A DNA stretch of 24,305 nt from Candidatus Heimdallarchaeota archaeon B3_Heim (lineage in GTDB: Archaea; Asgardarchaeota; Heimdallarchaeia; Hodarchaeales; Hodarchaeaceae), in contig NJBF01000046.1 in the NCBI GenBank assembly GCA_003144275.1, forward strand, positions 1 through 24,305, read 5' to 3'. Below, piece after piece: positions 1,466 through 17,167 of the stretch. How positions within the stretch are numbered: the stretch's first letter is position 1; each line of letters opens with the position of its first letter. Position numbers and translations under genes: made by a program. The notes beneath the pieces were generated by a model that saw nothing but the letters and a program-made list of their open reading frames with translations, made no database searches and was not told where the DNA came from.

Positions 1466-3916
1466 TCATTTTACAATCGAATGTAATTTGACTTGACATG
1501 TGGGACACACTTGTATCTTTGACGTGACCTGATATACTATCCCACAAGATGGACACACGGCTAAGAATTGAAGCACAGGAGTTGTTCTGGTGGGTTGAAA
1601 GGAATATCCATACTGATCCCCTTTTTTATATACGGAACTCGTTCTTTTTCGCATAAACCAATATCCAACTCCGCCTACTAGTACTAAGGCAAGTAGGCCA
1701 ATGATGATTATTTCAAAGTAGTTATCTGTGGGTTTTGAAGAGGGGGTTGAAGGGGGATTAAGAGGTTCTACATTAATTATTTGTCCTGGGGTTACAGCTA
1801 CACTTGCAGTAACTACGTGATCTAAGTCCGAAAGCTTAATTAGATAGATCAATGGATTAGATCTGAATGTGTGTTGCCACTTGGTTGGTTCAATAATAGA
1901 AAGCTCATAAAAGCATTCCCACCTTTGTGAGGGGAGGAGTGTCTCAATTTGTTTGTATAATTCCTCAAAAGGAAGATCCAAGACTGTTATTTCTGTCCCT
2001 TCATTGAATGTTTGATTCCATTCTAAAATAAAGGAGTCAGCATGATCTACCACCTTTAAATGAAATTTCACCGTGTTCGAGGCAGGACTATCAAAAGCTA
2101 GGACAATTTGGATGTCATCGATTTTTGAGTTATTATCTGAATCGGTAACAAACATCCCTACGCACCCTATGAATTCAACAAGGGCATTGGATGTAGAATA
2201 AGTTGCATCAAGATCAAAATTTCCGCTACCCTCATATGCGTGAATCAGAAGAATAAGTGATTCTGATTCATCGTGAGCGGTATATGAAACAGTTTCGGGA
2301 TAATCCTCTTCGTAAGATTCATCTAATAGATTGAATTCAAAATCAAACAGATACATATCAAAATCGGTCTGGGACGGACCAGTTAATTTAAGGGTAATTT
2401 TCTCTTTCCAGTGGAGGGAGAGAAATATTATCGCTACTTCATTTTGTTTGATTCGATTTGTTATACTTGGATTGTCATGTGAAAGAATAAAATCTGAGAC
2501 ATCGAGTGCTGCACCCTCTTTATACAGCTTGGATACAGCCTCGGACCAGCCAGTTTCCTCTCCAAACGATGAAACCTCAGAATAGTCTGAAATCCATAAT
2601 TCTGGACACCAAGGGGCATAAACCGTCAATCCTGAGGGTGAAGTGATAATTGAATTATTATATCTCTGATATACACAAGTTTGCTGCATCTGAAGTAGAA
2701 TATCTGCTTTTAATGCTGATATAGCCTCATCACTAACTCGATTGATAACATCTACAACTTTAACTAAATCAATTTGTTCAGAAAGTCCGAACTCGGTCAA
2801 AAATGATAGTTCTGCACATACTGTAGACAATTGAGCACTTTCCATCACATTAATGAATTCTGCTAATTCGGATAGATCATTACTTAACCCTTGTATTTTT
2901 GATAGATCAATCACTCCCAGTTGTATTATGTCCATTGACAGTTCCCGATGGTTAAACAGATTGTCATATGTTTCTTGAACGATAAATTGAGCGCACCTTT
3001 CTGGACCATAATTTACTGGATCAATACCGGAATCTGAAGTAAAATCGCTTAGCTTGTTCAAAAAACCAGTATAGTAAAAACCTGATAATCCTATTGAATC
3101 CTCAGAGGCTACCATAAACTTAGCATCATTTCTAATAGCGTATGCTACTTCAATACAACCCATTAGACAGGCATCAAATGCGATAACATCTAACGTATCG
3201 GGAAGATCTGAAAGAGCTGATGTTAATTCACTTTCCGTTAAAGTATCTCCAAATGAACGATCATCCCAGCAAACACCTTTTTGACGTGTAAGGAATGATC
3301 TGTCTACATTTTGTAGTATATTTGGAGGGCCTCTTAGATTAGTTGTGGATGTGTAATCTGTCCACTCTTCGACTCCTGTTTCCCAGCCTAATCCATGGTT
3401 CCATATGACTAAACAATAATGCTCTGCGGGAAATTTATTTATTGAGAATTCGATAAAATTCCTCAGCGTTCGAGGATCTCCCATATTCCTCTCCTCACTG
3501 GTGTTATCTAAATTAATAAATGCTCCACCTGCTCCAAGAATTCGAAACCGCTGACTTGCATTGTATTCTGAATTATCGGTATCTTGTACCAGACACGAAT
3601 CCCACCCATCAAATTCAACAACGACACATATTTCGGATCCAAAATTCGCATCTCTCATTTCCCATAAATCATTCACTCCTGCTTCTTCTAAATCGTTATC
3701 TGCAGCCATATAGACCATAATTGTCCATTTAAAAAGAGCATTGATATCTTCATTGCTATATACATGTTTAATTGATTTTAAATCTGAATTTGAATAGTTT
3801 TCCTCAACTTCATGACCTGGTACACTTCCATCACCTGCAGTAATGGCGAATAACAGAAAAATCCAAATGAATATGCAAATAAACAAACAACCCTTTCTCA
3901 TTATATAATTTTTCAA
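1466..3916 (-). CDS. Clostripain-family (C11) cysteine peptidase with signal peptide, PPC domain, C-terminal TM helix and cytoplasmic Zn ribbon
   Basis: WTIMVYMAADNDLE, HYCLVIWNHGLGW (catalytic His), VCWDD, IAFDACLMGCIEVAY (catalytic Cys), MVASED; PPC-like LTGPSQTDFDMYLFD...YEGSGNFDL; Pro-rich linker PLNPPSTPSSKP; TM IIIIGLLALVLVGGVGYWFM followed by RKR; CPSC...CPTC tail. Confidence 0.9.
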   Translation of the reverse strand: MKNYIMRKGCLFICIFIWIFLLFAITAGDGSVPGHEVEENYSNSDLKSIKHVYSNEDINALFKWTIMVYMAADNDLEEAGVNDLWEMRDANFGSEICVVVEFDGWDSCLVQDTDNSEYNASQRFRILGAGGAFINLDNTSEERNMGDPRTLRNFIEFSINKFPAEHYCLVIWNHGLGWETGVEEWTDYTSTTNLRGPPNILQNVDRSFLTRQKGVCWDDRSFGDTLTESELTSALSDLPDTLDVIAFDACLMGCIEVAYAIRNDAKFMVASEDSIGLSGFYYTGFLNKLSDFTSDSGIDPVNYGPERCAQFIVQETYDNLFNHRELSMDIIQLGVIDLSKIQGLSNDLSELAEFINVMESAQLSTVCAELSFLTEFGLSEQIDLVKVVDVINRVSDEAISALKADILLQMQQTCVYQRYNNSIITSPSGLTVYAPWCPELWISDYSEVSSFGEETGWSEAVSKLYKEGAALDVSDFILSHDNPSITNRIKQNEVAIIFLSLHWKEKITLKLTGPSQTDFDMYLFDFEFNLLDESYEEDYPETVSYTAHDESESLILLIHAYEGSGNFDLDATYSTSNALVEFIGCVGMFVTDSDNNSKIDDIQIVLAFDSPASNTVKFHLKVVDHADSFILEWNQTFNEGTEITVLDLPFEELYKQIETLLPSQRWECFYELSIIEPTKWQHTFRSNPLIYLIKLSDLDHVVTASVAVTPGQIINVEPLNPPSTPSSKPTDNYFEIIIIGLLALVLVGGVGYWFMRKRTSSVYKKGDQYGYSFQPTRTTPVLQFLAVCPSCGIVYQVTSKIQVCPTCQVKLHSIVK

Positions 3917-4391: not shown

Positions 4392-7300
4392 ATGCACCTC
4401 AGAAAAATCCTAGCGTCTCAATATTTCGCTTATGCTGTTTTCATTTCATTTTTTATTGGACTAACAGTGGCTTTGGTCATTAAATCTCCAGATTATGCTA
4501 CTACAGAGACAGTAACTAGTGATAAAAGTACCATTTCAAGTGTGGAGAACGTAAAAACCGTTATACAAGAATTAATTGATTATGAATACTATAGTGATCA
4601 AATTACCACTCATTATTTTCAGAATATTAGAAATCATATTGGTAATTTCTCTAGTTTCGGCAGTCGGGTAACTGGTTATCCTGGATATGAACTTTCAATC
4701 GACTATATTACAGATTTCTTTCAGAGTCAGAATTTGACGGAGGTTCAAACTCTTTCCTATCCTCATCTTGTCCCTCTTGATCGTGGTACGCGTTTCACCT
4801 TGGGAGGAAAAAATTATTCCGCTCATGCTCTTGCTCCCAATTCTGTTCATACCTCCAAAATTCCCTCCGGTGGTTTATCAGGTATGTTGGTATATGGAGG
4901 TTCGGGCAAATATAGCGATTTAGATGGTAAAAAAATTGATGGAGCTATTGTTGTTCTTGAATTTAATTCTCAGCATAATTGGATTAATGTAGCAAGTCTT
5001 GGAGCCAAAGGAGTCATTTATTTAACTCCAGATAAAACTAACCGATATGAAGCCGAAACTAAATCCATAGATATTCCTCTTGAATTCCCCCGTATCTATA
5101 TTGATAACAAGACATTGTCAGGAACTATGAGAACATTAAGTACCCAAGTAAATCAGACTGTTACTATTTATTCAGATATTGAATGGGAAAGGATCGATGC
5201 TAAGAATGTTATGGGAATACTACCTGGATTAGATGATGATATTATCGTTTTGTCAGCTTATTTTGACTCCTCTTCCTGTGTACCAGCGCTATCCCCTGGT
5301 GCAGATGAGGCTTGTGGGATTGCCACTTTGTTAGAGCTCATACGAATCATGAAAGATAATAAAGTCGTCCCCAAAAAAACTTTGATGTTTTTAGCCCTTT
5401 CTGGTCATAATCAGGCTGCAGCAGGAGCAAGAGAATTTGTTTCTAGCAACTATGATAGGTTGAATAGGCAAGGGGGAATCAAACTGTTTTTATCCCTTGA
5501 TCTTTCTAGTTCAACCAAAATTATCGGACTTAATCCTTATGGATATCTGTACAAATTTAAACTAAGATATACAACAGGTAATAATTTGTTCTACCGTTTA
5601 AAGAGCATCGGGGATATTTTTCTTCAATATGCCTCTGAGATACGAATGACTACTGATCATTCATTTAGTGTCGATTCTTATGTCAATATTCAGGATATTT
5701 TTGAGGATATCGCTCCTTTTACTTTTGTAGGGGATCAGGAGCCATTTATTGCCTCTAATGTTCTCGGATTGTCACTGTTTTCTGCCCAATCTCCTCGTAA
5801 TCTCTATAATACACCTTTTGATTTACCCAGCTACCTACAATTTAATCAACTTGAAGCTCAAGTCATTTACTCTATTTGTGCTTTAGTCCAATTAGTAAAT
5901 GATACCGATCTGGACAATTACCTTGATTTACAACCTAAGGGTTTCTCAGTTAAACCTAATATGCATGTTGGTTTTGGAGTTATCACAGGCTCTTGTAAAA
6001 TTTATAATGAATCATCCTTATGGACAGATAATGTAGCAAACGCACTTATCCGTATAACATCCCGAGATCCGAATACCAATAGTCCTGGAGTGTATTCTTA
6101 TTATACACAGACTGATGAAGAGGGGGGTTTTACTGTGAATGGAGTTTCTTCTTCTCAACCTGATAATCCCCTCGAATTTGATGTAGAAGCCTATACTTTC
6201 AATTCTGAGGGTAAATTAGTTCAAGCTAACAATTTAGGCCCATTTAGAGTGTTTTTTGACCAATCAAATAAATTAGTGACTCAAAAAATAACTATTAACC
6301 CAACGGTGTTCAATTGTGGAACTCTCGGCCTTTTTGACATTTCTCATCCCTACTCTCGGTATATCTCATCTCAAAGTTTGACCTACCAAGTACTAAATCC
6401 AGAATCTAGAGCTTCTCTACAATATTACGGTTACAAAAATTTGGACTCGGTCAGTTTAGTCTTCCTTCCCCCTCATACTCGATCAAGTATTATTGGTACA
6501 TTTCCCAATAATGTCTTGGGCATTTACGCTACAAACTCAAGTGCAGATTTATTACGGGGCTATGGTTTTCAAGTAGAAAAGGGTGAATTTAAAAACCTGG
6601 GTATTTCGACTTTCATAACTTCAAAAGATCTTCAATCAAAAACACAAACGTTCATTTCTTGGTACACTTCCCACAATATCTATGATCAAAGGGTTAATGA
6701 GACATTTCAAGAACTCTCCCTTCAAATCGAGATTATCAATTCGTTATTACAAAATTATGACTATTCAGAAGCGCTTCAGGAGATGAACCAAGCACGTCTT
6801 ATGTCCTTTACTGCCCTTCGTCAGGCTCGGAATATTATTACCGACGGAAGTAACACTGCCCTTCTGTTCGCTTTTTTCCTCATTCCTTTCTCACTCACCT
6901 TGTCAAACTTTCTCTTTGACTTAAATTCTGAGAAAAGATGGCTTATAGTATCCTGTATAATTTACTTCGTCGCTTTTGGATTTTTTTATCTCATTCATCC
7001 AGGATTTAAGATTGCTCCTCAGCTTGGATTGACTCTTATTGGATTTATAAACGTAATTTCGGTATTAATAATTTTTTATATGTTATTTCATGAATCCACC
7101 GGCTTTCTTGTACAAATACGTAAGAATACGTTAGGAGCTCATTTTATTAAATCCAATCAGACATCGGTTGTGCTTATAGCAATTAAAACAGGGATTCAAA
7201 GGATGAAAAAGCATAAACCACGTACAATTTTAAATTTATCAGCAGTTGCTCTTTTATCATTTTCATTAACTCTCCTTACCTCCACTAGCTCTCAGACTGG

Positions 7301-8162
7301 GTTTAATTTCTTAGAATTAGCTCTTCCGGTAGCTATTGCAATTCTTCTGATGAGTAACACTTCCATAAGTACTGTGTATGACTCCAAGAAAGAAATTTCA
7401 ATATTTACATCCTTAGGCGTGTCTCCTTCTAGTATTCTTGGACTGTTCATTGCTGAATTTCTTCTACATGCCATAATCGGATCTATGGTAGGTTATTCAG
7501 GAGGGATAATAGTTATTAGATTTCTTTCATCTATCGACTTAATTTCTGAATCTTTTTCTGTAAATTATTCTTCTCGAGCTGTTATAATTACATTAATCTT
7601 TAGTGGACTAGGGATGCTTGTGGGACTTGTTCTTCCCCTTCGAGAATCAAGTTTGAATTCATTACCTTCCCAGAAGCGATCATGGGAGATCTCTACCTTA
7701 CCTGAAGGTGATGGATCCCAGTGGAACATCTCTTTACCATTTGTAGCCTCGAGTGAGGATGAAGTAGAAGGAATTCTCGCATTTTTGAACGAATTTCTCT
7801 TGATTTTTGAATCAGAAAATGTTGGAGGCCCTTTTTTCGTGAGTAGTCCTATAATCTTCAAGAATCAACCTGGAATAGAAAAACATCTCACTACAACAGT
7901 TTATCTCGCCCCCTTTGATATGGGGATAATTCAAACCGTAGATGTATACTCTTATTTAGACACGGTAAAGAATCATTGGAAATTCGTTATTAAATTAAAT
8001 CGAGTAGAGGGGGTACTGCAGGCTTGGCAGGCCTTAGTCAAGCGATATATCGGAATTATGAGGCAACAATTTCTTCTCTGGAAGGGATTATCCAGAGAGG
8101 ATAAAATGGCTAGTACAGAACAGTTTAAGAATCTTATTTTTTCATTATCGCCGGATACTTAG
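4392..8162 (+). CDS. Multidomain membrane protein: N-terminal anchor, PA + M28-like (degenerate) peptidase domain, beta-sandwich region, FtsX-like permease TM module, C-terminal soluble domain
   Basis: SRVTGYPG; PA-like LVYGGSG...GAKGVIY; M28-like SAYFDS..PGADEACGIATLLELIR..FLALSGH; FtsX signature TVYDSKKEISIFTSLGVSPSSILGLFIAE; about 8 hydrophobic helices in total. Confidence 0.8.
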   Translation: MHLRKILASQYFAYAVFISFFIGLTVALVIKSPDYATTETVTSDKSTISSVENVKTVIQELIDYEYYSDQITTHYFQNIRNHIGNFSSFGSRVTGYPGYELSIDYITDFFQSQNLTEVQTLSYPHLVPLDRGTRFTLGGKNYSAHALAPNSVHTSKIPSGGLSGMLVYGGSGKYSDLDGKKIDGAIVVLEFNSQHNWINVASLGAKGVIYLTPDKTNRYEAETKSIDIPLEFPRIYIDNKTLSGTMRTLSTQVNQTVTIYSDIEWERIDAKNVMGILPGLDDDIIVLSAYFDSSSCVPALSPGADEACGIATLLELIRIMKDNKVVPKKTLMFLALSGHNQAAAGAREFVSSNYDRLNRQGGIKLFLSLDLSSSTKIIGLNPYGYLYKFKLRYTTGNNLFYRLKSIGDIFLQYASEIRMTTDHSFSVDSYVNIQDIFEDIAPFTFVGDQEPFIASNVLGLSLFSAQSPRNLYNTPFDLPSYLQFNQLEAQVIYSICALVQLVNDTDLDNYLDLQPKGFSVKPNMHVGFGVITGSCKIYNESSLWTDNVANALIRITSRDPNTNSPGVYSYYTQTDEEGGFTVNGVSSSQPDNPLEFDVEAYTFNSEGKLVQANNLGPFRVFFDQSNKLVTQKITINPTVFNCGTLGLFDISHPYSRYISSQSLTYQVLNPESRASLQYYGYKNLDSVSLVFLPPHTRSSIIGTFPNNVLGIYATNSSADLLRGYGFQVEKGEFKNLGISTFITSKDLQSKTQTFISWYTSHNIYDQRVNETFQELSLQIEIINSLLQNYDYSEALQEMNQARLMSFTALRQARNIITDGSNTALLFAFFLIPFSLTLSNFLFDLNSEKRWLIVSCIIYFVAFGFFYLIHPGFKIAPQLGLTLIGFINVISVLIIFYMLFHESTGFLVQIRKNTLGAHFIKSNQTSVVLIAIKTGIQRMKKHKPRTILNLSAVALLSFSLTLLTSTSSQTGFNFLELALPVAIAILLMSNTSISTVYDSKKEISIFTSLGVSPSSILGLFIAEFLLHAIIGSMVGYSGGIIVIRFLSSIDLISESFSVNYSSRAVIITLIFSGLGMLVGLVLPLRESSLNSLPSQKRSWEISTLPEGDGSQWNISLPFVASSEDEVEGILAFLNEFLLIFESENVGGPFFVSSPIIFKNQPGIEKHLTTTVYLAPFDMGIIQTVDVYSYLDTVKNHWKFVIKLNRVEGVLQAWQALVKRYIGIMRQQFLLWKGLSREDKMASTEQFKNLIFSLSPDT

Positions 8163-8204: not shown

Positions 8205-8355
8205 CTATTCCCCTTAAATATTACTGATATTTGTGTTCAGAATTCAAAGTATCAATTCTAGCAATTTGTAGATAAGTTAGGAAATATTTAATTATGATGC
8301 AGTGTTAACTCTAGCTACTCCTACTAGAAAATCTAGATTCTTTTGTGATGGTCTT

Positions 8356-9105
8356 ATGATAGGCATTGAAATTACGAGTAAAAACAGTGGAATTCCTCTT
8401 TTTACCCTTGAATTTCGGCCTGATACTCTTTTCAATAGTGAAATCAGAGGAGGGTTAATTACTGCGATCATGCAAGTTATGGGGGAAACGTTTGGTCCAC
8501 AGGAGACTAAAATTGTCAATTACGGTCATTATAATGCCATCCTAGTTGAGGGGAAATATGTCTATGGGATGCTCTTCACTTTTCAATCGGGTCCAATCTT
8601 TGAGCGATTTATTTCTGACTTAATTGACGATTTTGAAGAAAAGTTTCAGTCAGAGTTAGAAGATACGATATCAGGTAAGACTTTAGTCCATCAAGAACAC
8701 TATGATTTCGCAGTGGAATGTGCTCAAGCCTATAAATCCTTTTCACATATCGACGTCACAAACTTAAGTAAATTATTGGACTCTATCCACAGCTATGGCG
8801 ATCAAATTTTTGAGAATGTGCTCATTTACACACGTCCAGAAATGAGTCAAATTTACACTCATTTAATTGATGAAAAATTTAGTGTGTTCAGTGATGAGGT
8901 TTCTAAAGCACTTAAAACAGTTCTGGATTTATCCAATCGTACTTCTTTCCCTGTTGAGAATTTTCAAATAGCTTTATCCCGAGATTTTCATTGCCTTATG
9001 TTCAATGCCTTCCCTTATTCCGTTATTGTTTTTGTAGGTGAAAAGGATTTAGAGCTGACTCACTGGAGAATTAGTGAGATTAAAAACGATTTTGCTGAAG
9101 GGTAG
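8356..9105 (+). CDS. Longin-like domain protein with a second longin/roadblock(profilin)-like domain
   Basis: MIGIEITSKNSGIPLF...GGLITAIMQVMGETFG...YNAILVEG..YGMLF...ISDLIDDFEEKF follows the bb-a-bbb-aa longin pattern typical of Asgard proteins; the second half (ENVLIY...VSKALKTVLDL...FHCLMF...VIVFV...EIKNDF) has a similar small alpha/beta topology. ATG 8356 is preferred over the ORF-track start at 8302. Confidence 0.6.
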   Translation: MIGIEITSKNSGIPLFTLEFRPDTLFNSEIRGGLITAIMQVMGETFGPQETKIVNYGHYNAILVEGKYVYGMLFTFQSGPIFERFISDLIDDFEEKFQSELEDTISGKTLVHQEHYDFAVECAQAYKSFSHIDVTNLSKLLDSIHSYGDQIFENVLIYTRPEMSQIYTHLIDEKFSVFSDEVSKALKTVLDLSNRTSFPVENFQIALSRDFHCLMFNAFPYSVIVFVGEKDLELTHWRISEIKNDFAEG

Positions 9106-9230: not shown

Positions 9231-10070
9231 ATGGCTGAAGTGGAAATAAAATCATCAACTCTTTCCGAAAATTACAGGTCTTTAGGTCTGATTATAGGAT
9301 TATTTTTATTTTTTCTGGTTTTTAAAATGCTCGATATCTTCTAGCTAACCCTAGATGAGGACTGGGGAGATATTCTTCTTTCTAAATCATTTTCTGTTAT
9401 TTAATTTTATTTCTACTTATCTTTATGGGAAAAACTCTTGCAGATATCGGTATAAAAAAGGAGTATTTCTTTTACAATATTTTATTTAGTTTGGGATTTG
9501 TAATCCTCTCCATTGTCTCTATGCGTCTTATGTATACCTTTATTGTCGGGGATTTCGCCGCCGCATGGGATTTTTCTGAGGTCACGGTTATGTTTCTCTA
9601 CTTCACTTTCGTGACCAATATTGTGAATGTCATGATGGAAGAAAGCTTATTTCGTGGAATCTTTCTCCGTATATCTTTGGATGTCACGCGAAAACACTTC
9701 TGGAAAGCGAATCTTCTTCAAGCGTTTTTCTTTGGCCTTTGGCATTTTCCTACCCCGCTAAAAGGATATGTATCAGGTGAACTTGCTTTTTCTGAAGCAA
9801 TTCTATATATTATTGTCTTGTGTTCCTTAACATTCGCTGTTGCTCTTCCCTGGGGTTATTATTATTTCAAAACTAGTTCTTTACTCCCTCCGTTGATTTT
9901 GGCACTTACTTTGGAATGCTACACTGGGAATTTTACCTCTACCCTCTGATAATATGGTTGCTTATTTGCTCGCGTTACTTGTGGGAACTCTTGTTGCTCT
10001 TGGATCGATTCCGTTATTCGATCGAATTATTTCCCCCAAAGTTCTTGATGAACTACCTCCATGGACCTAA
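9231..10070 (+). pseudogene. CPBP (CAAX/Abi) intramembrane glutamic metalloprotease pseudogene
   Basis: ATG 9231 after a GAGGA RBS; in-frame TAG at 9342-9344; frameshift near 9390; core ORF 9425-9949 carries MMEESLFRG and FFGLWH; second frameshift at ~9903 puts the HLLWN motif and C-terminus in another frame that ends at TAA 10068-10070. Confidence 0.85.
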
Positions 10071-12362: not shown

Positions 12363-12689
12363 ATGTTAGTAACAAATGATGAGGACAAATCGCTTTATCA
12401 GATATCTACTGATATATCTGGAGAGCTCGAACCGTATGAGGATCCTTCTCAGCAGTTAAAGAAGGAATCTGTTTATGTATTACTTGATAACGCATTGAAA
12501 AAAATATTCTTATGGATTGGTCAATCAGCAGGCGTTCGTTCACGATTTATTGCCAGTAATGCTGCTCAAAATTTACAAAGAATTAAAGGTTTAACTCATC
12601 GGGTTATTACCATTGACCAAGGTGATGAAACCTCAGAATTCATTAATTCTATTTCGTCAATGGTTATTCCTGATCAATTTTCAAAATAA
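12363..12689 (+). CDS. Single-domain gelsolin-like protein (Asgard 1DGel/ProGel type)
   Basis: Gelsolin-repeat pattern L..ESVYVLLD...KKIFLWIG..AG...RFIA...AQNL....VITIDQGDETSEFI; GAGGA RBS upstream. Confidence 0.85.
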   Translation: MLVTNDEDKSLYQISTDISGELEPYEDPSQQLKKESVYVLLDNALKKIFLWIGQSAGVRSRFIASNAAQNLQRIKGLTHRVITIDQGDETSEFINSISSMVIPDQFSK

Positions 12690-14617: not shown

Positions 14618-17167
14618 TCAAGTGAGAAATAAGATTTCCCCTTTTCCACTCAACTCTAAAAATTTGCTTTTACCAGTTTGGTGTTCAACGAGATACCCTC
14701 TAGATACAAGATGTTTTATCCTTTTTCTAGCTGTTGGCCTACTTATCTTTAATTCCTCTCCAATATCCGAATATGAAGGTTTAACACCAACACCATTCTG
14801 CTGAAATACGTACTTTAAGATTTGAAGAAATTCTTCTGAAAAATTGGCTATAAAACGAGGTTCTAGAGCGTGAGTTTCTTTTTCTATAACTGCTATCTCT
14901 CGTTCTGTCAAAGTAGAAGTATCTACAGACAAAAGTACGACTAGATTATTGAAGTAAGTCATTTCGTTTAGTTTAAAAATAAATTTAGTGACAATTTCAA
15001 AACCCTCTTTCAAAAATAAATATTCCAAACGATCAAATAGGAATACTGACTTTCGAGGGGTTTCTTTCATTATATTCAAAAGAGTCTCAAAGTTATTTTT
15101 CTCAGTTAGTTGGAAAAATGCGATTTTTTCCTTAATATGATTAGTAAAATCCCTTTTTGGAGTACGAGAAACAATAAATCCATTATATCCGACTTTGGTG
15201 AGATCCTCGAAAACAGTTTGCGACAACCTGGGCAATTTTTCTTTTATGAAATACATTTTACCATCTTCAACCTTGAATTTAAGTAATTGAGATTTTAGTT
15301 CCTCTTCTTTTTCTTTTAGAGCCGAAATATCTTCGATCATCGCAAGAAGAAAGCTTGGTTCACCTTTCTCGTTTTTTAGTAATGTTACAGTAGTTTGAGC
15401 CCATAAAAAATCTGAATTTTTCTTAAGATACCGTTTTTCTGTCTGATAGATTGAATTTTTTCCTTCTATTAATCGCTCGACAAATTTGATATCCCTTTTC
15501 ACATGTTCAGGGTGAGTGATTTCTGGAAAAGTTAATTGAGTTAATTCTTGTTCAGAATATCCAAGCATATTACAAAATACTGCATTTACTTTACTAAATT
15601 GATAGTTTAAATCAGTTAATAACATTCCTATCGGTGCGTTTTCAAAAATGGATCTGAATTTTTCCTCACTTTCCCGTAGCTCCTCCTCCATCATTTTTTG
15701 TTCAGTTATATCTGTAGATATAAGCCCTAGTCCATCACCCACCTTGAAAGCTTTCAAAGAAAATCGTACATCCCCAAAACGTTTGCTAGGCACTGTTCTA
15801 TCTGTGGTCATTGGTTTACCAGTTTCTACGACCTGTTTATAATCTACAATATTTGTAGGATGAAGAAGAAACTTTTCAATATTCACCCCTAGTGGGAGGT
15901 TTTTGTCATAGGCTTTTTTAGTCAATTTATTCGAGGCTCTATTGGCGAGTACAAGGTTTAAATTTGAATCCCAAAGTGAATACGAGTCTGTGGCCGCATC
16001 CAAGAAACTCCTAAGCATTTCTTCATTTTTACGTATTTCTTCCTCCATTTTTTTACGTTCTGTAATATCTGTTGTTATTATTCCCAAACCTTCTCCCATC
16101 TTGAAAGCTTTCTGAGAAACGATTATTTCTCCGTATTGTTGCGGAGGTCCAATTCTATCTGCAATAAAAGATACTCCAGTTTCTAGTACCTTCTTGTAAA
16201 AATTTATGTCCTCAGGGTTGGGATGGAATTCTGCAATATGCTTACCCAGAATATTTTCCTTTTTTTCTTCTCTGGTGTATTTTTCTAATCCCGCTGGATT
16301 GACATCTAGTAACCTTAAATTTGAATCCCAGATAGAAAAGGAGTCAGTAGCGGCATCCATAAATCCTCTAAGTCTTTCTTCGCTTTTACGGATTTGTTGT
16401 TCCATTATCTTTCGGTCTGTAATATCTCGGATAATTGTAAGTATTTGAATAACCTTTTTCTGATCCTTATCGAAGATCGGAATTTTCTTCGTCTCGGTAA
16501 AATATACTACACCTCTAATTTCTGTTTGTTCTTCAGAGCCTATGATTTCGCCTCTTTTAAAAACAGATTGATACTCAATTTCAACTTGTTTCGGAAGAAA
16601 AGGAAAGGCCTCAGCCACTTTCTTTCCAATAATAACTGGATTCAGTTTTAAGCTTCTTAACCAGGGGTAAAAAGCGTGATTTGTAAGAATAATTTCATGG
16701 TCCTGATTTATGACGTGAATTGGATCTCCGATAGAATTGATAGCTGTTCGATATTGTTCTTCTGACGCCTGCATTGTCTTCTCCATCCCAATTCGCTCTG
16801 TAACATCCCGAGCGATTCCTAAATATCCAATAATTTTCCCTTGTGAGATTTGTGGAGTTGCTTTTGATTCAAGAATTACTAGAGACCCATTCTTTGTTGG
16901 AACACGCGCAGAATATGGAGGAGGAATTTCTCCACGAATTGTTGCGCGAAATCCTTCCTGTACTATCTCGGAATCCTCTGGATGTACTAATTCTAAGAAA
17001 TGCTTACCGATCCATTTTTCTCTGGACCATCCAGTTATTGTTTCAAATTCATGCGATATAGAGGTTATGAGACCTTCACCATCAAGAGTGAAAATGATGT
17101 CACGGATATTATCCCAAATATATTGGAATAATTCTTCAGAAAGTGGTTTATTTGTCAAATAGAACAA
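14618..17167 (-). CDS. One-component sensor/regulator: 5 PAS/PAC domains + DUF835 (degenerate KaiC/RecA-like) + C-terminal winged HTH
   Basis: Five PAS units, each ending in a DIT/DVT/DIS motif (RDVTER, RDITDRK, TDITERK, TDITEQK, EDISALK); DUF835-like GYNGFIVSRTP...VFLFDRLEYL...VLLSVDTSTLTEREIAVIEKE; wHTH PSYSDIGEELKISRPTARKRIKHLVSRGYL; TTG start with a GGAG RBS. Confidence 0.85.
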   Translation of the reverse strand: MFYLTNKPLSEELFQYIWDNIRDIIFTLDGEGLITSISHEFETITGWSREKWIGKHFLELVHPEDSEIVQEGFRATIRGEIPPPYSARVPTKNGSLVILESKATPQISQGKIIGYLGIARDVTERIGMEKTMQASEEQYRTAINSIGDPIHVINQDHEIILTNHAFYPWLRSLKLNPVIIGKKVAEAFPFLPKQVEIEYQSVFKRGEIIGSEEQTEIRGVVYFTETKKIPIFDKDQKKVIQILTIIRDITDRKIMEQQIRKSEERLRGFMDAATDSFSIWDSNLRLLDVNPAGLEKYTREEKKENILGKHIAEFHPNPEDINFYKKVLETGVSFIADRIGPPQQYGEIIVSQKAFKMGEGLGIITTDITERKKMEEEIRKNEEMLRSFLDAATDSYSLWDSNLNLVLANRASNKLTKKAYDKNLPLGVNIEKFLLHPTNIVDYKQVVETGKPMTTDRTVPSKRFGDVRFSLKAFKVGDGLGLISTDITEQKMMEEELRESEEKFRSIFENAPIGMLLTDLNYQFSKVNAVFCNMLGYSEQELTQLTFPEITHPEHVKRDIKFVERLIEGKNSIYQTEKRYLKKNSDFLWAQTTVTLLKNEKGEPSFLLAMIEDISALKEKEEELKSQLLKFKVEDGKMYFIKEKLPRLSQTVFEDLTKVGYNGFIVSRTPKRDFTNHIKEKIAFFQLTEKNNFETLLNIMKETPRKSVFLFDRLEYLFLKEGFEIVTKFIFKLNEMTYFNNLVVLLSVDTSTLTEREIAVIEKETHALEPRFIANFSEEFLQILKYVFQQNGVGVKPSYSDIGEELKISRPTARKRIKHLVSRGYLVEHQTGKSKFLELSGKGEILFLT

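Follow-up and report, generated by a model that had tools for sequence, protein, structure and literature searches.

A single open reading frame joins an M28-fold head to an FtsX module

The window analyzed here is the whole of a 24,305-nucleotide (24-kb) contig (NJBF01000046.1; here C25) of Candidatus Heimdallarchaeota archaeon B3_Heim, an Asgard archaeon of the Hodarchaeales, and the gene of interest lies at 4392-8162 on its forward strand. Based on the list of open reading frames and their translations, this gene is a single open reading frame of 1,256 aa with zero internal stops. Its product, from here on the window protein, matches Pfam Peptidase_M28 (PF04389) at aa 272-484 (49.1 bits; cut-off, 21.3) and Pfam FtsX at aa 980-1084 (34.2 bits; cut-off, 25.5), and more weakly Pfam PA at aa 164-229 (E = 0.18). 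Hydropathy analysis identified an anchor at aa 10-31, three transmembrane (TM) segments at aa 822-900, and four at aa 944-1084, giving ~8 TM segments in total. AlphaFold, run on a 64-sequence alignment, modeled aa 45-515 with a pLDDT of 93.9 as the α/β fold of aminopeptidases, which together with the PF04389 match above the gathering score places this head in the M28 fold. A reading made earlier from the sequence alone (the original prediction) had described a single chain in which an M28 head, a prealbumin-class β-sandwich, and an FtsX module are fused, and both the Pfam matches and the AlphaFold model bear out this architecture, the sandwich being probably of the prealbumin class. The features of the gene are as follows:

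4392-8162, +: whole gene, short form of the M28-FtsX family without the periplasmic core domain (PCD), 1,256 aa
4419-4484, +: N-terminal TM anchor with basic residues before it (aa 10-31; hydropathy peak, 2.48)
4569-5921, +: extracytoplasmic M28-fold head interrupted by a PA insert (about aa 60-510)
4782-5177, +: PA (protease-associated) insert (about aa 131-262)
5256-5822, +: remodeled metal-site motifs AYFDS (Y290, D292), PGADE (D305), SGHNQ (H339, N340), SLDLS (D370), and YNTPFD (N473)
5970-6317, +: β-sandwich 1, probably transthyretin/CnaB-like (aa 527-642)
6318-6605, +: β-sandwich 2 (aa 643-738), with its strands in the AlphaFold model
6606-6854, +: three-helix stalk into the membrane (aa 739-821; model helices 228-248, 255-276, and 280-310)
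6855-7091, +: three accessory TM helices (aa 822-900), from hydropathy, kept in the long form
7092-7220, +: cytoplasmic linker with a basic stretch ahead of the first TM segment of the FtsX module (aa 901-943)
7221-7643, +: FtsX/MacB-type four-TM module, including the cytoplasmic loop between its second and third TM segments (aa 944-1084; Pfam FtsX)
7284-7307, +: junction at which the MacB periplasmic core domain is lacking (aa 965-972)
7644-8159, +: family-specific C-terminal cytoplasmic domain (aa 1085-1256)

The PA insert is supported by structural alignments to the PA-bearing proteins BSAP, 2ek8, and the transferrin receptor (TfR), which cover this stretch, and by relatives in which PA is recorded; within the insert, N150, Y168, W197, K224, and R234 are conserved throughout the family. 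Structure matches to the three-helix stalk were generic helical bundles only. We infer an N-in orientation for the N-terminal anchor. The number of TM helices after the head is odd, so aa 32-821 would lie outside, and the 6 Lys/Arg among the 15 residues preceding the first TM segment of the FtsX module would fit a MacB-type N-in topology. The ectodomain has 9 N-glycosylation sequons against 9.4 expected; since there is no enrichment, the sequons provide no evidence on topology.

The FtsX module lacks the periplasmic core domain

The FtsX module gives partial matches to the NCBIfam LolCE and MacB models, and a profile of the family matches MacB (5lil) at 8.6e-19. With an FtsX match above cut-off and four hydrophobic segments at aa 944-1084, the window protein has the four-TM module of type VII ABC permeases. 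The large periplasmic core domain of the Porter/Sabre type (PF12704), which in such proteins lies between TM1 and TM2 of the module, is absent from the window protein: the gap between TM1 and TM2 is about 8 to 11 residues, while long paralogs have about 240 aa with PF12704 at this position. The original prediction had not noted this gap. In agreement with this, the alignment with the 1,475-aa relative P0022 is collinear save for about 240 residues between TM1 and TM2. The TM2-TM3 cytoplasmic loop is strongly conserved between the short and the long form.

The C-terminal 169 residues match 1,027 representative clusters (50% identity) at E ≤ 1e-3, and among the full-length proteins listed, this match is always at the C-terminal end of proteins of roughly 1,350 to 1,860 aa. 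The C-terminal domain has no Pfam match, and an Atlas search gave no look-alike. Judged by these matches, it is a family hallmark.

The short form is a Hodarchaeales-specific paralog

A word-indexed search identified 310 relatives. The closest are 55 to 67% identical orthologs of 1,228 to 1,270 aa from Hodarchaeales/Heimdallarchaeota, followed by Hodarchaeales proteins of 1,375 to 1,500 aa, most of which have PF12704 (MacB_PCD). Remoter relatives (24 to 30% identity; 1,434 to 2,134 aa, most around 1,450 to 1,650) are encoded by Thermoproteota, Latescibacterota, Gemmatimonadota, and Desulfobacterales, including Desulfatibacillum alkenivorans DSM 16219. Thus, the original prediction was right that M28-FtsX fusions occur in bacteria and other archaea.

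In each of the 18 short-form clusters, the anchor columns are separated by 11 residues, and in all others by at least 242. In a tree built without the PCD columns, the short forms group as a single clade with an SH-like support of 100, and this clade lies within the long forms of Hodarchaeales. Because the short forms are a single nested clade with a uniform 11-residue gap, these data indicate one duplication followed by one clean deletion of the PCD. The genome of the window also has a long paralog, on contig C96, that is 51% identical to the window protein end to end; relative to the long form, the loop and the C-terminal domain are 51% and the head 55% identical. In the genus sample, the short and the long form co-occur in six of the eight genomes with a short form; of the two with the short form only, one is 80% complete and in the other the sequence is cut at a contig end. 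Four genomes of this sample have the long form only. One genome (G199) has two short copies (G199:C146:11452-15198 and G199:C181:2033-5611) in addition to the long form, and at G003:C104 and G007:C49 there is a third, more distant paralog with open frames of 1,644 to 1,652 aa. A comparison with the 96%-identical ortholog fragment of G013 over 469 codons (TM and tail region) gave a dN/dS of 0.18, by which the short form is under purifying selection. Taken together, comparative sequence data support that the window gene is a Hodarchaeales-specific paralog minus exactly the periplasmic core domain.

Of 18 further genomes from the same genus-level group, 11 contain the family, which was found in none of 12 sampled genomes of other families in the class. 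Phylum-wide, 8 of 201 Asgard genomes matched, of which 7 belong to that genus and 1 gave a partial match elsewhere. This patchy occurrence in Asgard archaea and the broad spread in bacteria and Thermoproteota fit lateral acquisition. As the family is nearly confined to one Asgard genus-level group, vertical descent to eukaryotes is disfavored. Our searches found no relevant literature on M28+FtsX proteins, DUF6785, or nicalin in Asgard archaea.

The canonical two-zinc site is lost throughout the family

Active M28 enzymes have five co-catalytic Zn ligands, which in the Vibrio/Aeromonas aminopeptidase (AAP; 1amp) are His97, Asp117, Glu152, Asp179, and His256, and Glu151 as the general base. The original prediction had described a degenerate site in which the motifs read AYFD, GADE, and SGHNQ. 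These motifs are present (AYFDS from aa 289, PGADEAC from aa 302, and SGHNQ from aa 337), and a HMMER alignment with AAP confirmed the loss of canonical zinc ligands: His97 corresponds to Tyr290, Asp99 to Asp292, the bridging Asp117 to Asp305, and Glu151-Glu152 to His339-Asn340. From motif knowledge, we take Asp179 to correspond to Asp370 (SLDLS) and His256 to correspond to Asn473 (YNTPFD) or, less likely, Gln449. The last His ligand is absent either way because neither Asn473 nor Gln449 (in GDQEPF) is a His. Thus, the head has Tyr290, Asp305, Asn340, and Asp370 at the first four ligand positions and His339 in place of Glu151, which is not the ligand set of an active M28 enzyme.

Residues at these positions were counted in 113 full-length relatives:

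Position 290: Y in 57, H in 25, F in 19, N in 10
Position 292: D in 113 of 113
Position 305: D in 81, E in 31 (Asp or Glu in 112 of 113)
Position 339: H in 111 of 113
Position 340: N, F, W, A, or H
Position 370: D in 78, H in 19, K in 11
Position 473: N in 45, D in 25, G in 24, F in 12, His once

Ser372, Arg469, Thr474-Pro475, and Asp477 are also conserved in the family, and close orthologs interchange Tyr with His at position 290 and Gln with His at position 449. By these column counts, the canonical two-zinc site is lost family-wide and not just in the window protein. The second-best match to the window protein as a single-sequence query was PDB 2anp, which is titled a "functional" Glu151-to-His mutant of AAP. 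Going by this title, a His can serve at the general-base position, and the site may have residual or new chemistry.

The head is closest to PA-bearing M28 aminopeptidases

According to the original prediction, a segment of the head closely resembles the matching segments of eukaryotic nicalin and nicastrin. The best Foldseek matches to the head in the PDB are the PA-bearing active M28 aminopeptidases 2ek8, PaAP (8acr), BSAP (6hc6), and 3iib, followed by TfR and GCPII; neither nicalin nor nicastrin is among the 50 best entries of Foldseek or of VIA. The family profile searched against PDB sequences matched 2ek8 at 6.4e-28, YwaD at 7e-22, AAP at about 4e-15, and TfR at 4e-13, ahead of nicalin at 1.4e-11 (profile positions 254-473) and nicastrin at 1.9e-5. 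With the window protein as a single-sequence query, nicalin had an E value of 0.08 versus 6e-7 for 2ek8. These profile and single-sequence E values are similarity rankings and not a tree. Searching the PDB with a profile restricted to aa 345-515, the C-terminal half of the M28 domain, gave zero matches, and Pfam Nicastrin did not match the window protein at E ≤ 1. On these rankings, the head appears no closer to nicalin and nicastrin than ordinary peptidases are, and the likeness is that of any two members of the M28 superfamily. The suggested kinship is therefore not borne out, since active PA-M28 aminopeptidases score far better.

The closest known peptidases are BSAP/YwaD (6hc6) of Bacillus subtilis, the Aneurinibacillus AM-1 enzyme (2ek8), PaAP of Pseudomonas, and AAP of Vibrio/Aeromonas. 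These enzymes are soluble or secreted, whereas the window head is fused to an eight-TM ABC-type permease; compared with them, the head has lost the ligands His97 and Glu152 as well as the final His, and a His takes the place of the general base Glu151. TfR is a receptor and not a peptidase. As an inactive PA-M28 protein, TfR 1 differs from the window protein in having one N-terminal TM segment and no ABC module.

Nicalin (7tm3) and nicastrin (5a63) resemble the window head in being M28-superfamily ectodomains that lack peptidase ligands and are joined to membrane complexes. However, they are eukaryotic type I proteins with one TM domain, paired with 7-TM TMEM147 or APH-1, on which this single domain packs (PMC7505659). 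The window protein does not have this topology: it has an N-terminal anchor and seven further TM segments and not a single C-terminal TM domain. The APH-1 and TMEM147 families (PF06105 and PF09767) were not found in the 94%-complete genome in searches that had no positive control. The part of the protein that follows the head had also been likened to NOMO, which has a long tandem array of prealbumin/Ig-like domains and a C-terminal TM domain. We found just two β-sandwiches (aa 527-738) between the head and the stalk and no long tandem array, and the "NOMO-like" sandwich fold is ubiquitous in surface proteins.

Long forms are encoded with ATPases in a conserved cluster

The long form lies in a gene cluster conserved in six Hodarchaeales genomes and D. 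alkenivorans, as seen at the seven loci examined (L009 [G000:C96:38600-58599], L022, L026 to L029, and L025). In Hodarchaeales, the order is orf126, a small FtsX protein (200 aa, no ectodomain), ABC1, ABC2, an 808-aa gene on the opposite strand, a DUF6785/DUF6784 membrane protein, the long M28-FtsX protein, a second membrane protein of 633 aa, a 226-aa gene on the opposite strand, and a 759-aa protein. The Desulfatibacillum cluster comprises the small FtsX protein, one ATPase, M28-FtsX, DUF6785/DUF6784, and a protein homologous to the 633-aa one (E = 2e-42). A locus search seeded with the single D. alkenivorans protein P0101 returned the Desulfatibacillum locus alone.

The best-scoring models for ABC1 and ABC2 are LolD, MacB, and FtsE. 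These two LolD/MacB-like genes on contig C96, in the cluster of the paralog, are the candidate ATPase partners of the window protein; there is none in the window. Because genomes with only the long form already possess both ATPase genes, neither is specific to the short form. The Desulfatibacillum ATPase (L025:9171-9923) is 61% identical to ABC1 (L009:3301-4023), while the large subunits are about 26% identical, a contrast that may stem from tight constraint on the ATPase or from the system having been transferred laterally. In the relative P0083, DUF6784/DUF6785 and FtsX domains are on one chain. The OPT likeness of the 633-aa membrane protein is a faint Pfam match (E = 0.88), and PDB sequence searches with the 633-aa protein and the DUF6785 protein were empty.

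Surroundings of the short-form gene

Several other genes in the window were annotated. Upstream of the M28-FtsX gene and divergent from it, 1466-3916 (-) encodes a protein of 816 aa from the clostripain family (C11), which has a Cys-rich tail as well as a C-terminal TM segment; this pairing is repeated at the 65%-identical ortholog in G003 (L024) and not in G007 or G011. Downstream on the same strand are 8302-9105 (+), which encodes a 267-aa protein with no Pfam match and an 88%-identical ortholog in G003, and 9425-9949 (+), which encodes a CPBP/Rce1-like intramembrane protease. A 108-aa protein encoded at 12363-12689 (+) has a gelsolin repeat (PF00626; E = 1.3e-5) and DUF7904; this signature is cytoskeletal and eukaryote-like, in keeping with an Asgard (Hodarchaeales) host. 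The 849-aa protein encoded at 14618-17167 (-) carries several PAS domains and DUF835, has a winged-helix helix-turn-helix at its C terminus, and is probably a sensor-regulator.

DISCUSSION

We consider it reasonably probable that the window gene encodes the large membrane subunit of a type VII (MacB/FtsX/LolCE-like) ABC machine, with a non-canonical and probably non-proteolytic PA-M28 head carried on two β-sandwiches and a helical stalk. Like MacB (5lil), LolC/E/F (7arh and 9w2w), FtsX, and YbbP, the window protein has an FtsX module of four TM segments that starts N-in after basic residues and has a conserved TM2-TM3 loop, and, as for type VII ABC permeases, the cluster of its paralog encodes LolD/MacB/FtsE-like ATPases. 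Unlike these permeases, it lacks a periplasmic core domain between TM1 and TM2 and an adjacent ATPase gene, and it has an N-terminal head of roughly 790 aa attached via three extra TM helices as well as the roughly 170-aa family-specific tail. The long M28-FtsX proteins (the G000:C96 paralog and D. alkenivorans P0101) share its head, stalk, TM set, and tail; the window protein differs from them in lacking the roughly 240-aa MacB_PCD and in being encoded outside the small-FtsX/ATPase/DUF6785 cluster. A type VII ABC complex that drives a catalytically dead peptidase-fold adaptor is known from FtsEX-EnvC (see also PMC7668044). EnvC differs from the window head in having an M23/LytM fold and in binding non-covalently to the periplasmic domain of FtsX, which the window protein lacks.

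In the mechanism that we propose, the head would bind a ligand, which could be a peptide or protein terminus or another envelope component, without cleaving it. The short paralog would dock to the ATPases and the small FtsX protein of the distant long-form cluster and so replace or partner the long subunit. ATP-driven movement would pass to the head via the membrane helices and the stalk, a route proposed because the PCD, the usual moving part, is absent. More doubtful, in our view, is the extension that the form without the PCD represents a new working mode of type VII ABC-like machines, in which ATP-driven motion, or none, would reach a pseudo-peptidase receptor head via the accessory TM helices and the stalk, and the pocket around the invariant His would capture a specific envelope or peptide ligand and pass it on to DUF6785-type membrane proteins encoded with the long form.

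Several observations weigh against a non-proteolytic, ATPase-driven subunit. The canonical route of mechanotransmission does not exist without the PCD; there is no ABC ATPase or small FtsX gene in the window; the neighborhood of the short form is conserved only among close relatives; the coupling of the short form to distant ATPases is inferred throughout; and the invariant His339, Asp292, and Asp/Glu305 could build a new catalytic or metal site and not a binding site. The last point leads to an explanation that we find improbable, namely that the head is still an enzyme that processes a peptide or envelope substrate at a site with one metal or none, rebuilt around His339 with Asp292, Asp/Glu305, and Asp370. 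The near invariance of three of these residues (111, 113, and 112 of 113 relatives, respectively), the conservation of Ser372, Arg469, Thr474-Pro475, and Asp477, the His mutant of AAP that is titled "functional" in 2anp, and the retention of His at position 290 in some close relatives speak for such a site. On the other hand, the positions of the Zn1 ligands (Glu152 and the last His) are filled by differing and often non-ligand residues (N/F/W/A and N/D/G/F, respectively), position 370 is Lys in 11 relatives, and the free exchange of Tyr/His (290) and Gln/His (449) among close orthologs is what would be expected of positions that are unconstrained. Loss of ATPase coupling, which would leave the FtsX module a mere membrane scaffold and make the short form either a receptor acting passively at the surface or a decoy or regulator for the long-form machine, is to us a similarly unlikely outcome. 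It would explain why the window has no ATPase gene, is compatible with the deletion of the part that moves in MacB-type proteins, and agrees with the presence of both ATPases in genomes with only the long form, where neither is tied to the short form. It sits poorly with a TM2-TM3 loop and C-terminal domain about as conserved as the head (51% versus 55% identity to the long form) and with the dN/dS of 0.18 across the TM and tail region.

The original prediction also raised the possibility of a prokaryotic counterpart, by kinship or by analogy, to the complexes of nicalin-NOMO-TMEM147 (BOS) or nicastrin, recognizing substrates in membrane-protein biogenesis or intramembrane proteolysis, and this we regard as very improbable. 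The M28 fold in common and the missing canonical ligands, the significant nicalin match (1.4e-11; profile 254-473), which spans the entire catalytic-type domain, the nicastrin match at 1.9e-5, the probably prealbumin-class sandwich after the head, and an Asgard host with a gelsolin-repeat gene in the window all point in its direction. Yet active PA-M28 aminopeptidases and TfR score far higher, Pfam Nicastrin is unmatched, ~8 TM segments stand against a single C-terminal TM domain (PMC7505659), APH-1 and TMEM147 are unmatched in the genome in the searches lacking a positive control, and two sandwiches are not a NOMO-like array. Moreover, a family common in bacteria and Thermoproteota occurs in only 8 of 201 Asgard genomes, 7 of them of one genus. 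On present evidence, the window gene has no bearing on the origin of the eukaryotic BOS or γ-secretase complexes.

Read as part of a type VII ABC-like machine, the window protein belongs to a large unstudied family, spread over archaea and several bacterial phyla, whose members combine a zinc-less aminopeptidase fold with an ABC-type mechanotransducer. Identification of the ligand would add a functional class to the type VII ABC systems beside efflux, lipoprotein release, and hydrolase activation. The copy in the window is a natural deletion of the presumed mechanotransmission domain, maintained under selection beside a full-length copy, and thus offers a ready test of which functions require the core domain.

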